From Chrysomallon squamiferum (taxonomy: Eukaryota > Animalia > Mollusca): 64,000 nt of DNA. Position 1 is the first letter of the stretch. The number at the start of each line of letters is the position of its first letter. Shown here piece after piece: positions 21,092 to 62,093 of the stretch. The stretch covers positions 12,896,001 to 12,960,000 of the forward strand of contig CM022679.1 in the NCBI GenBank assembly GCA_012295275.1. The letters are read 5' to 3'. A program made the position numbers and the translations under genes. The notes beneath the pieces were generated by a model that saw only the letters and a list, made by a program, of their open reading frames with translations, was not told the DNA's origin and searched no databases.

Positions 21092-24000
21092 TCACACAGG
21101 AGTCTGTTGGTAAGATGTCCCTTCTCCACTTTCACTAATATTGTCGACTTCAAAGTCTAAGGCAAGATTTGTTTGACTGTTTGGCGGACCATCCATTGTG
21201 AAATGTTCTCTCATCTGAAAACATGATGACAAAAATTACTAATTTTTTCATTGTCTGATAATATGCTCTGATCTGTAAAATTAACTAGAATGATTAAAAA
21301 TAAATACTAAGAAGATGATTACATTGAAGAAGAAGAAAAGGATGATGACAATCATGTTAATGATGATGATGATGATGACAACAATGAAGGTGTTTAAAAA
21401 GAAGATAACGATGGTTAAATGGAAAGGAAATATTATAATAACAAGGATGATTGACTGAAATTATTTATAATTAATCGGTATATGTTTATTCTAGATTTTC
21501 ACACTGTTACAATCAAACTCATGTAATAAAATTAAAATTTGAACTCAGTAACTTAAGAATGAACTTTAATATTATATAAGCTTAAAATATCCGATTTTTA
21601 TTACTTGTATAATTCAGAGTCCCTAATAACTAAATAATGCACACACACACACACACACATATATATATATGATAGATAGATAGATAGATAGATATATAGA
21701 TAGATAGATAGATAGATAGATAGATAGATAGATAGATACATAGATAAGCTTTGCATTACTCAGAACAGTACCTTTCTCCTTCTTATTTTTGACCATGTCA
21801 GTTCAAGTAGAAAAATTAAAAGTCCAAGAGCAACACCACAAGCAACCAGAATGAAGATTCCTCCCACTGTAAGAAATGTCAGTCCTTTGCTCTCGTCGAT
21901 GGTTGGACACTGAATCGAGCTCGTGTTCCACCATTTTGATTTCAGATTTTCAAGGATCGTTTCACCTTGTAATTCTAGAATCCTAAAACAGTCAAAAGAA
22001 ATAAAATGGAAATAAAATATAAATACTTATATGTCAAGAGAAAGGGAATGGAGAAATAGAGATAATCAAAGATACAGACAGTCAGACAGATAGCTTACAT
22101 TGTTGTGTGTGTGTGTGTGTGTGTCATCTGGAGGTTTCAGCATTAATGAGAGATTATCTTTAATTTTGAAAGGAATCTGCATTGTAAAATATTATCTTAA
22201 TAAATAATTATATCTGAAATTATTTTTATTCATTTAATATTACAAGGAACATATTTCTTTTTATGGGCATGCTCTACCTTCTTTACAACACTAAACTCGT
22301 TCACACTGCATCAGTGAAAGGAAATACGCTCACTTTATCATTTATCATTCAACTTACACTTGTGAGATTTTCTTGGTCAAGGGAGACAAATGCGGCAAAG
22401 CAAAGGCGTACGGCTTGGAACTGAACTGTTTTCCGACGCTCGTCAAGCCGCAGTGTTGAAGAAGCTCGTACTGCAGCAGCGGATACTCGTGTATGAACGC
22501 AAAGTCCCCTCCGAGCACTCTCTCTATCCCCTCTGCCGTGCTGTTCAACAAACCCGTCTCTGTAATCGCCTGCCATATGGCCACGTACTTTTCTCCGAGC
22601 GGATAATCCCAGACGGCCAAGTCTGCAAGAGTTGACGTCAGATCCTTCTTTCTCGCGTCGCTCGTCATGTTCTTCCACAGTTCGTAAAAGTTAACTTCGA
22701 TCATCGCCATTCTTTTGAAATACAGGTGTATCGAGGTTCCAGCCACGACCGAATACTTCACGACGTTCTGCGAGGCCAGATCGTCCAGCGATTCTATAGG
22801 AATGGTCATTCTGGTCGTGGTAAGGTAGGCTGCCAGGTTGGCGGTGTATGTCGCCATCATGATGCTGCAGAAAAACCAGAAGCCAGCGATGAGGATTCTG
22901 GCGGGGAAGGTTTCAGGAGTGTTTTCCGGACCTTAAAGAAAACGGTAAAAAAAAAAAAAAAAAAATTAGTCGTTAAATAGTTTTACATTTTCCTATTTCA
23001 TCACAGAAAACGAGCATAGACTCTGGCCAACAGCTTAAAACCATAACGATTCAATCGTTGAGATGCTTTTAGGCATTCTGAAATGACATTTTGTCATCCT
23101 GCTCTGAAGAGAAATCAAAATAATGTAAGAAAAAAAAGTATGGTAAAATCTAATTGTATATATAATTTATGTGGTATGCAGAAATTAAACTGTTTACTTT
23201 TACTTTGTTTCATTTGTTTTATTTGTTATTAACATTAATAATAAAAACCTCAAACCATAAAAGCCAAAGCAATGGCCATATGTTAACATAAATAATAGTA
23301 AAATATTATTAGTAGTAGTAGTAGTAGAGACAAAAGAAGTAGTAGTAGTAGCAGTAGAATAGTAGTAGTAGTAGTAGTAGTAGTAGTAGAGTCAAACGGA
23401 GTAGTAGTAATAGTAGTAGAGGCAAAATAAGTAGTAGTACTAATAGTAGTAGTAGTGTAGTAGCAATAGTAGAAGTAGTTGTAGTAGTAGACACAGTAGT
23501 AGTAATAGTAGCAGTAGTAGAAGTAGTTGTAGTAGTAGAGACAGTAGTAATAGTAGCAGTAAATTGTAGTAAGAATTTGATGATGATAATTTAGAAAGAT
23601 GAAACATAGAAGGAAAAAAGAACAAGAACAATTAAATGGGGGTGAAAGCCAAAAAAAAAAAAAAAAAATCGAACAAAAAGAACATCACTGAAAACAACAC
23701 TTTAACAATGATTCATTAGTTATAGTCTCACCAGCCTGTGTAAAGGATGTGGCCACAAACCACAGACCCTCTGAAACGCTGTACTTGCTCCAGTTACTCT
23801 CGTGTCTGGCCGGCGCGTACGGACTCAGCCGCTCGAAGACAAATATGAGGACACCGCACGTGACCATCAGGACAAAGTAGCACGTCCACACCGGCCACGA
23901 GAACACCGTCGTGAACGCCATCAACGACGGCACTACCAGATTGGCTTTGGTTATGATCTGGATGCCACCAAACTCGTAGAAGGGCGTCGTCATATCGATT

Positions 24001-60400: not shown

Positions 60401-62093
60401 ATATATGTTTTATTCAAAGTTATGACCTAGTGTTTTATATAAATATATATATATATATATATATATATATATAGAGAGAGAGAGAGAGAGAGAGAGAGAG
60501 AGAGAGAGAGAGAGAGAGAGAGAGAGAGAGAGAGAGAGAGTACAAAATTCAATGCCTACCTTTATTTAAAACAAGTATGGCGTGTGTCTCTTCTACAAAT
60601 TGAACATATTCAGGAAAATTGTTGTCTGAAGCTGAATCTAAAATCTTTGGGTGTAGAATCACTATAATAATAATAACAATAATAATAATAATAACAATAA
60701 TAATAATAATAATAATAATAATAATAATAATAATAATAATAATAATAATAACAAATAATAATAATAATAAGAGTCTTAGTAGTAGTGGTAGTAACAATAA
60801 TAATAATAATAATAAAAATTGTAACAATAATAATGATAATAATAATAATAATAGTAACAATAATAAAAATAATAATTGTAATAACAACAACAACAACAAT
60901 AATAATAACAATAATAATAATAATAACAATAATAATGATAATAATAATAATAATAATAATAATAATAATAATAATAATAAATTATCTTTAAAAATTACTT
61001 TTGGTAATATGTATGTGTTATTTTTAAAATAATTTATATTTTTGTAATTATAGTGATTATTTTGAGTTTGTTTTAAGTTGATTTACTTAGTAATCCTTTA
61101 TTTATCCTATATTATTCCTTCTCCCAAATAAAATATGAAATATAACTTTTGATATCTAAATAGAATACATTTTCCTGATTAATACACAACATATACTTTA
61201 AATCAGTCAGTGAACAAATAACGAGACATCTCTATCAATTGAAGAATGTAAAACTTTAAATTTTAGAGAAACAGCACTACGTTTTATTTTTTTTAAAGTT
61301 ATTACTTCTGTGCAAATGTTATGTTATTTATGTTTTTGCCATCTATACAAATTAGAATATATTCAAATTGATTATTATATACGTCAATGTACTCTGAAAA
61401 TACCACACATGCAGATATATTAATTACTGAGATTTTGGACTTACAATGGTTTTGATATCAAGAGACCAATTGTAACAGTGATCGATGGAAACAGCAAATA
61501 AGAATAGGAATTATTTGATCGATTATAACGTGAAACATTTAATTAATCAATATTAAATTTTCTGTAAATCATTTAAAGCCAGATTTAAATCTTAGATAAT
61601 TACAGAGAGATAGAGAAAGGGAGAACAAACAGACAACAAGATAGAGAGAGAAAAACAGAGAAAAAGCGAGACAGGTAGAGAGAGAGAGAGAGAGAGAGAG
61701 AGAGAGAGAGAGAGAGAGAGAGAGAGAGAGAGAGAGAGAGAGAGAGAGAGAGAGAGAGAGAGATTTATCTAAACTGGTTTGTAACCAGCTAGACAGATAC
61801 GAAACGAGAGAAAAAATGAACTATTTTAAAAACTATCAACACTAAGCATACCACCAAACGTTTACTGACAGACTGTTATTTTAACTGTTATTATTCATCA
61901 TGCAATTCGTCTGACACGTTTTCAACATAACAGTTACTGATCTCGTAAGTAGAAATAAATAATGCATTACTGTATCACTGTGAAGAACAATATAAATCAT
62001 TTACCTACCTATAGTTACGTTAAAGGATGCACCAGATGTGAGGAAGAAAATCAAGAGGATGGTGAAGATGTTTTTTCTCCAACTGTGTTCCAT
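51489..62093 (-). CDS. IR-3: ionotropic receptor, IR25a-like co-receptor-type channel; 13 coding exons, ~847 aa; one frameshift in this assembly
   Basis: Exons (- strand): 62093-62009 (signal peptide MEHSWRKNIFTILLIFFLTSGAS), 60661-60560, 60188-59940, 59326-59154, 58538-58407, 58011-57859, 56325-56224, 55557-55465, 55024-54833 (EPPFV..YGYSID), 54202-53878 (ADIIVGALTVTAEREKVVDFTLPYYDFAGIQILM, FDLKESIWYVVGSLTMSG), 53359-52800 ([54 protein letters not shown]), 52256-52066 (KMKWW..C, M4), 51676-51489(TGA). The S1/S2 motifs closely resemble IR25a. Extra base at 52844-52847. Confidence 0.9.
58604..59150. repeat. (GATA)n/(GACA)n compound microsatellite
   Basis: Occupies most of IR-3 intron 4; another (GATA)n at ~21671-21746. 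Confidence 0.9.
59335..59570. repeat. Degenerate (ATACA)n pentanucleotide repeat
   Basis: AATAC/AGTAC/AACAC units; related pentamer tracts at ~8120-8400, 26320-26545, 36760-37010. Confidence 0.8.
60664..60978. repeat. (AAT)n/(AAC)n microsatellite
   Basis: Directly abuts the splice acceptor of IR-3 exon 2. Confidence 0.9.

Follow-up and report, generated by a model that had tools for sequence, protein, structure and literature searches.

In the 64,000-nucleotide stretch of the Chrysomallon squamiferum genome analysed here (the window; GenBank assembly GCA_012295275.1, contig CM022679.1, positions 12,896,001 to 12,960,000 of the forward strand), exon-by-exon reading identified three genes of the ionotropic glutamate receptor (iGluR) superfamily, all on the minus strand and spanning 21092-62093 (41.0 kb). 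The outer genes, A and C, are assigned to IR25b.1 and IR25b.2, a published mollusc pair of ionotropic receptors (IRs), and the middle gene, B, is orthologous to a protein that has been described as mollusc Delta, so that each of the three already has a published name. What appears to be new is the setting of this orphan protostome 'Delta', which across gastropods is flanked by the two IR25b genes and in an annelid is next to one of them, together with its grouping with tuning IRs. We tentatively propose that gene B encodes an IR-type subunit of the tuning-IR lineage, without the interlocking beam of co-receptors, which would assemble with IR25b into a sensory cation channel. Positions below are those of the window, and statements taken from the literature refer to the parts of each source that were covered.

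51489-62093, minus strand: gene A, assigned to IR25b.1; 13 exons, 847 amino acids (aa); signal peptide, ATD, LBD with co-receptor insert, M1-M4
35185-47262, minus strand: gene B, assigned to spiralian 'GluD' (ortholog of Lottia GluD1-2beta); 12 exons, 843 aa
21092-29853, minus strand: gene C, assigned to IR25b.2; 13 exons, 829 aa
53043-53063, minus strand: LAVWDYP core of the co-receptor insert in gene A (motif search and alignment with IR25a)
22600-22620, minus strand: LAVWDYP core of the co-receptor insert in gene C (motif search)

Identity of the three genes

The N-terminal halves of the published IR25b.1 and IR25b.2 (PMC12837371 Table S3) match A and C when compared by eye. Gene A is 78% identical to Gigantopelta XP_041363768 over 642 aa and 64% identical to Lottia 109845 over 425 aa, and in the tree it groups with a Lottia protein whose S1 matches LgigIR25b, a name already present in a 2010 supplement (PMC2924276). 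Gene C is 70% identical to Gigantopelta XP_041364194 over 764 aa, and A and C are 45% identical to each other over 472 core residues. The published pair lies in tandem, 30-95 kb apart, in four gastropods (PMC12837371 Table S4), a spacing that leaves room for an intervening gene; the parts of that paper covered name none, whereas here gene B lies between. The same source reports enrichment of IR25b.1 and IR25b.2 in the antenna and lip of four gastropods, and it treats the pair as duplicated in each lineage and IR25b as specific to molluscs. In our tree, by contrast, A and C fall into two distinct, old groups of orthologs, the C group including proteins of bivalves, and the annelid Owenia and the nemertean Tubulanus have IR25b-like proteins as well. 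A literature search found no functional data on IR25b. The naming of mollusc IRs reportedly stems from Andouche et al. 2021.

Both outer genes carry a co-receptor insert of about 31-36 residues containing AVWDYP, which is missing from B; the insert is present in 59 of 223 aligned receptors, every one of them IR25a or IR25b. It corresponds to the CREL (PMC6472016), which by cryo-electron microscopy is an interlocking beam found only in primary co-receptors and fixes two such subunits per tetramer (bioRxiv 10.64898/2026.09.30.755715). The aromatic beam residue equivalent to IR25a F700, placed by mapping the preprint's numbering onto our own alignment, is kept in A and C, and the M3 gate motif is intact in both (TFTANLAAF and TYTANLAAY, respectively). 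The proline that insect co-receptors have at the Q/R site is absent from A (M) and C (Q), and A is without the beam glycan sequon. A structure model of the Haliotis ortholog of A (mean predicted local distance difference test score (pLDDT) 77.7) has a complete ATD fold and a long helix-loop-helix at the insert, although the ATD profile PF01094 found no match in the outer genes; a fold search with this model returned generic iGluR matches only.

The outer genes are distinct from canonical IR25a, the class marked by an SLTPQGG pore and membership of the IR25a clade. SLTPQGG does not occur anywhere on the minus strand of the window, the corresponding residues being SLTMSGG in A and SFTQAGP in C, and the IR25b clade (support 99/96) is sister to IR25a (100/100) in the 39-row tree described below. 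The canonical ortholog in Gigantopelta (P0074) is 38-39% identical to the outer genes, and mollusc canonical IR25a genes lie on chromosomes other than those of IR25b. An earlier reading of this DNA from its letters alone (the original prediction) had described A and C as extra co-receptor lineages rather than canonical IR25a, with LAVWDYP in the outer genes only and no canonical IR25a pore, and all of this was borne out.

The second-best match of gene B is LOTGIDRAFT_110473 (68% identity over 233 aa), which is listed as LotgiG110473, GluD1-2beta_Lgi, and filed as Delta (PMC6307864 fig1-data2); this 245-aa fragment is too short for the trees. Gene B is 75% identical to Gigantopelta XP_041364195. 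Its relatives (the B clade) include proteins of scallops, mussels, oysters, a chiton, octopus, nemerteans, Owenia and the flatworm Macrostomum, whereas PMC6307864 describes Delta as absent from annelids. The published protostome 'Delta' proteins GluD1-2beta_Lgi and CraGluD belong to this same clade and are alike in their full ATD and R/T/D pocket; in gene B the ligand residues R501/T496/D706 are kept in an alignment to GluD2. The Q/R pore site of gene B, residue 592 (exon 38783-38463), is occupied by a glutamate, which many B-clade proteins also keep and which could favour calcium permeation. The IR25b-like and B-clade proteins from outside molluscs are P0317 and P0420 (Owenia), P0316/P0330 (Lineus), P0328/P0030 (Tubulanus) and P0335 (Macrostomum).

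Phylogenetic position and linkage of the B clade

Our main tree (39 rows by 410 columns, LG+C20 with posterior mean site frequencies) recovered the B clade with support of 100/99 as sister to divergent tuning IRs (100/100). By divergent IRs we mean proteins with FPN..FG.N and degenerate M3 motifs like those of the published IR-C and IR-D. The two also grouped in a 74-row set, for which a quick tree only was made, at a Shimodaira-Hasegawa-like approximate likelihood ratio (SH-aLRT) of 99; the 39-row set omits 35 of those 74 rows, including the three flagged there as long branches. An approximately unbiased (AU) test rejected an exclusive clade of the B clade and deuterostome Delta (p=0.005, at a cost of 28.7 log-likelihood units), and a constraint uniting all IRs with the B clade was not rejected (p=0.11). 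The B clade has 2 strict and 10 loose group-exclusive residues in common with divergent IRs, and 0 and 4 with deuterostome Delta. A FastTree of 223 rows, a method prone to long-branch error, joined the B clade with all IRs (0.966).

With the divergent IRs removed, the B clade falls beside Delta (stem 0.97, SH-aLRT 93), which reproduces the published position of mollusc GluD as 'earliest-branching Delta' (PMC10861852). Protostome 'Delta' thus leaves deuterostome Delta once tuning IRs enter the tree, and the covered passages of the published Delta trees name no tuning IRs (PMC6307864, PMC10861852). Tuning IRs may have arisen from inside Delta, which would make Delta paraphyletic and each of the two names partly correct. 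An affinity between GluD and IRs in general is already in print (PMC12837371), and IRs have been recovered as sister to Delta with a bootstrap of 80 (bioRxiv 10.64898/2026.09.30.755715). The covered parts of the 2010 IR supplement (PMC2924276) contain no B-like protein. That supplement labels AcalGluRK1 of Aplysia as kainate, and this protein has the degenerate M3 motif of divergent IRs, a mismatch that reads as a sign that mollusc iGluR and IR labels are unsettled.

The original prediction saw an IR module in the cluster and held that it would fail if, among other things, the middle gene nested firmly within a synaptic AMPA, kainate or delta clade and was expressed in the central nervous system only. 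By name gene B does belong to one, being a published Delta; the trees instead place it next to tuning IRs and do not nest it firmly in deuterostome Delta, and therefore the reading as an IR module survives. The interpretation given in the original prediction is supported in part; it missed that the outer pair was already a named, published tandem and B a published Delta.

The prediction had also looked for linkage in relatives, and linkage is kept in gastropods and in Owenia, as read from accession order and equal contig sizes. Patella XP_050390554/556/558 are C, B and A (near-consecutive accessions), Gigantopelta XP_041364194/195 are C and B (consecutive) and Nucella ACOMHN_036196/197/201 are A, B and C (near-consecutive identifiers). 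A and B are consecutive in Batillaria (BaRGS_025042/041) and Bradybaena (BsWGS_05777/05778), and share one contig in Plakobranchus (229 kb) and Candidula (1.26 Mb). Location on the same chromosome, which is weaker evidence, was found in Babylonia, Littorina, Pomacea, Haliotis cracherodii, two scallops and Mytilus edulis. In Owenia an IR25b-like protein (CAH1794108) and a B-clade protein (CAH1794110) are two accessions apart on one contig. A, B and C are likely to have arisen by ancient tandem duplication and to have been linked since before the mollusc-annelid split. A literature search found no paper describing the three-gene linkage of IR25b and 'GluD'; closed supplements may bear on this point.

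Gigantopelta has a second B-clade paralog, P0136 (XP_041364197), probably of the GluD1-2alpha type. It is two accessions from Gigantopelta B, and the receptor cluster may therefore extend beyond the window. Further B-clade paralogs are P0220-P0222 in Haliotis and P0214/P0223/P0224 in the chiton, the latter being three genes on one chromosome.

A possible IR25b-'GluD' channel and its competitors

Insect IR25a/IR93a/IR40a and IR8a/IR75b heterotetramers combine a beam-bearing co-receptor with beam-less subunits (bioRxiv 10.64898/2026.09.30.755715), the same division as between A or C and B. In flies and Caenorhabditis elegans, tuning IRs cannot traffic to the sensory ending without a co-receptor (PMC6472016, PMC13293861). 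The oyster protein CraGluD (XM_011429946), whose sequence matches oyster members of the B clade when compared by eye, gave no ligand-gated current when expressed alone, either as wild type or as lurcher mutant, and no surface label (PMC10861852). From the dependence of beam-less IRs on a co-receptor and the silence of CraGluD alone, we infer a tetramer of an IR25b.1 or IR25b.2 pair with B, which would be sited in peripheral sensory neurons.

Going by the insect structures, two identical beam-bearing subunits (A and A, or C and C) would sit diagonally, interlocked and with their ligand clefts locked, and one or two beam-less subunits would occupy the remaining positions. Gene B, in which the D2 lobe is free and the R/T/D residues of the ancestral pocket for amino acids are present, would be the ligand-binding subunit, its clamshell closing on a small carboxylate or amino acid and so pulling on the M3 gate. 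Without a co-receptor it would be retained in the endoplasmic reticulum. Alternatively, because B has a full ATD, it might act like IR93a, which likewise has one (bioRxiv 10.64898/2026.09.30.755715), as a second co-receptor in a 2:1:1 complex.

A predicted complex of the Haliotis A and B orthologs (LBD and transmembrane regions) scored 0.44, against 0.01 for the best control, with runs agreeing in at least 93% of contacts and a partner pLDDT of at least 74. This support is weak, and we give it no weight because both chains are iGluR relatives with solved tetramers. Among 78 solved pairs 51 reached the mark used, as did 2 among 108 mismatched pairs; at scores of 0.60 or below, only 5 of the 78 solved pairs did, and so did all 4 mismatches that passed.

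Several observations weigh against assigning B to a channel with IR25b, and many of them suit a different explanation, which we consider less likely: that B is a true protostome Delta independent of its neighbours, a homomer or synaptic organiser, perhaps binding GABA or amino acids, and that the cluster is a relic of tandem duplications of one AKDF gene that gave IR25 and Delta. Two published phylogenies put mollusc GluD in Delta (PMC6307864, PMC10861852). The best PDB matches of gene B are GluD2 (265 bits) and GluD1 (251), followed by AMPA (243), and its best fold matches are again GluD1 and GluD2. Mean core identity of the B clade is 34% to deuterostome Delta and 30% to divergent IRs, and a delta-like protein of amphioxus (37%) is the best-scoring relative of gene B after spiralian matches. 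Raw similarity to B is highest for the GluD of deuterostomes and acoels, which is GABA-gated or orphan and has the same domain order. Gene B has a full ATD (PF01094, although Pfam profiles do not tell iGluR classes apart) and an intact TYTANLAAF gate, whereas most tuning IRs differ in ATD and gate. Unlike insect tuning subunits it keeps gate motif and pocket residues, and so shows neither the reduced ATD nor the degenerate gate or pocket by which tuning IRs may be recognized; by the other mark, absence of the beam and grouping with tuning IRs, it qualifies within a set that holds no named arthropod tuning IR. Six of the 11 introns of gene B stand at the exact column of gene A introns, as expected for old paralogs. 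Moreover, it has been argued that the beam likely precludes assembly with sister iGluRs (bioRxiv 10.64898/2026.09.30.755715).

The trees themselves call for caution. The position of the pair formed by the B clade and divergent IRs relative to IR25 and Delta differs between the 39-row and 74-row trees, with the deeper branch at 87/91. Because the B clade and the divergent IRs both evolve fast, long-branch attraction can affect the trees and the AU test alike. The tree sets were without named arthropod IR93a, IR8a and IR76b and without an NMDA or Epsilon outgroup. The label 'divergent IR' derives from motif likeness to IR-C and IR-D and an ESM Atlas lead, and one member, P0343, was automatically named 'delta-2' by its source. 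In addition, CraGluD is a diverged oyster paralog, which could fail in oocytes for ordinary reasons, and a search for expression data on gene B found none.

An independent Delta is, however, at odds with the rejection of an exclusive clade with deuterostome Delta in the AU test and with the behaviour of the oyster protein: invertebrate deuterostome and acoel Deltas gate as homomers, those of acoel, starfish and acorn worm to GABA, whereas the oyster member was currentless even as lurcher (PMC10861852). The placement in Delta also comes from trees whose covered passages name no tuning IRs.

Linkage is a further point at which the proposed channel with IR25b is vulnerable. A and B orthologs are on different scaffolds in Elysia chlorotica and in Haliotis rufescens, where A is apart from B and C, and the IR25b-like and B-clade copies of Tubulanus are on different contigs. 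Insect co-receptor and tuning genes are generally unlinked, and linkage is therefore not required for partnership. This leaves room for B as an IR-lineage subunit whose partner is canonical IR25a, encoded elsewhere, or else either co-receptor, while its linkage with IR25b would be historical and carry no partnership; we give this lower credence than an independent Delta. The position of the B clade beside tuning IRs suits it too, the same species carry canonical IR25a on other chromosomes, and IR25a is the subunit shown in Aplysia and Biomphalaria sensory neurons. IR93a, also with a full ATD, partners IR25a (bioRxiv 10.64898/2026.09.30.755715). Against such a partnership, it is IR25b whose linkage persists in gastropods and Owenia, and no B-clade match has the contig size of its own species' canonical IR25a match in Gigantopelta, Patella vulgata, Littorina and Pecten.

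Gene models and implications

Strand, span and complete gene models agree with the original prediction of three full-length genes on one strand in about 41 kb, although A and B are frameshifted as assembled. In gene A one surplus base near 52845 brings the first stop at aa 749, and in gene B a base missing near 38625 brings it at aa 559. Both frameshifts are absent from all four public sequencing runs checked (from at most three studies) and are therefore assembly errors. That A and B are pseudogenes in an array decaying in this animal is accordingly very improbable: it could appeal to these frameshifts and to a TG acceptor in C, but the reads lack the frameshifts and the genes retain 70-78% identity to their Gigantopelta orthologs.

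62093-62009, 60661-60560, 60188-59940, 59326-59154, 58538-58407, 58011-57859, 56325-56224, minus strand: gene A exons 1-7
55557-55465, 55024-54833, 54202-53878, 53359-52800, 52256-52066, 51676-51489, minus strand: gene A exons 8-13
47262-47187 (candidate), 45423-45268, 44692-44441, 43791-43598, 43176-42970, 42372-42220, minus strand: gene B exons 1-6
41314-40992, 40222-40126, 38783-38463, 38023-37806, 37443-37193, 35467-35185, minus strand: gene B exons 7-12
29853-29769, 29454-29326, 28114-27872, 27314-27139, 26724-26608, 26166-26026, 25403-25320, minus strand: gene C exons 1-7
24931-24839, 24611-24420, 24053-23732, 22931-22358, 21982-21772, 21214-21092, minus strand: gene C exons 8-13
52841-52848, minus strand: false frameshift in gene A exon 11, a one-base assembly insertion; 4/4 runs without one base at 52844 or 52848
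38624-38628, minus strand: false frameshift in gene B exon 9, a one-base assembly deletion in a homopolymer; 4/4 runs with an extra base behind 38625

In gene C, exon 8 (93 nt) requires the TG acceptor, at 24931, which could be a rare acceptor type or one more error in the assembly, and intron 6 requires a GC donor (at 26026). The common exon architecture claimed for the outer genes holds: intron phases are identical through intron 11 (1,1,1,0,0,0,0,0,0,1,2), intron 12 differing, and exons 1, 8 and 9 are 85, 93 and 192 nt in both. Introns 7-11 of A and C stand at the same alignment column (5/5), and introns 1-6 fall within the poorly aligned ATD. We rejected the common phases as a sign of special kinship among A, B and C, since gene B has many of them too. 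A similar phase pattern is seen in vertebrate AMPA and Delta genes.

The genes are separated by gaps of 4.2 kb and 5.3 kb, in a window with a G+C content of 30.6% and abundant microsatellites. A multi-exon M1 aminopeptidase gene (6660-20170, plus strand), with an N-terminal membrane anchor and matches to PF17900 and PF01433, is convergent with gene C and ends about 0.9 kb from the gene C stop.

IRs are regarded as one of the chief chemosensory families of aquatic protostomes, and no report of a mollusc IR complex being functionally reconstituted turned up in a literature search. CraGluD, the only mollusc Delta to have been tested, was silent, leaving the ligand of the ancestral Delta open (PMC10861852). 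With rather less confidence than we attach to the channel itself, we suggest that protostome 'Delta' proteins could be the least-changed members of the tuning IRs, and the IR25b-'GluD' cluster the surviving ancestral pair of co-receptor and tuning subunit, transitional from a Delta-like homomer to heteromeric IRs; oyster GluD would then be silent for want of the beam-bearing partner that in most relatives is encoded by the adjacent gene. If gene B does need IR25b, an orphan receptor would be rescued and a first lophotrochozoan IR complex obtained. It would also show the origin of tuning subunits from a Delta-like ancestor, alter the class to which protostome Delta is assigned, and extend IR25b and the B clade to annelids and nemerteans.

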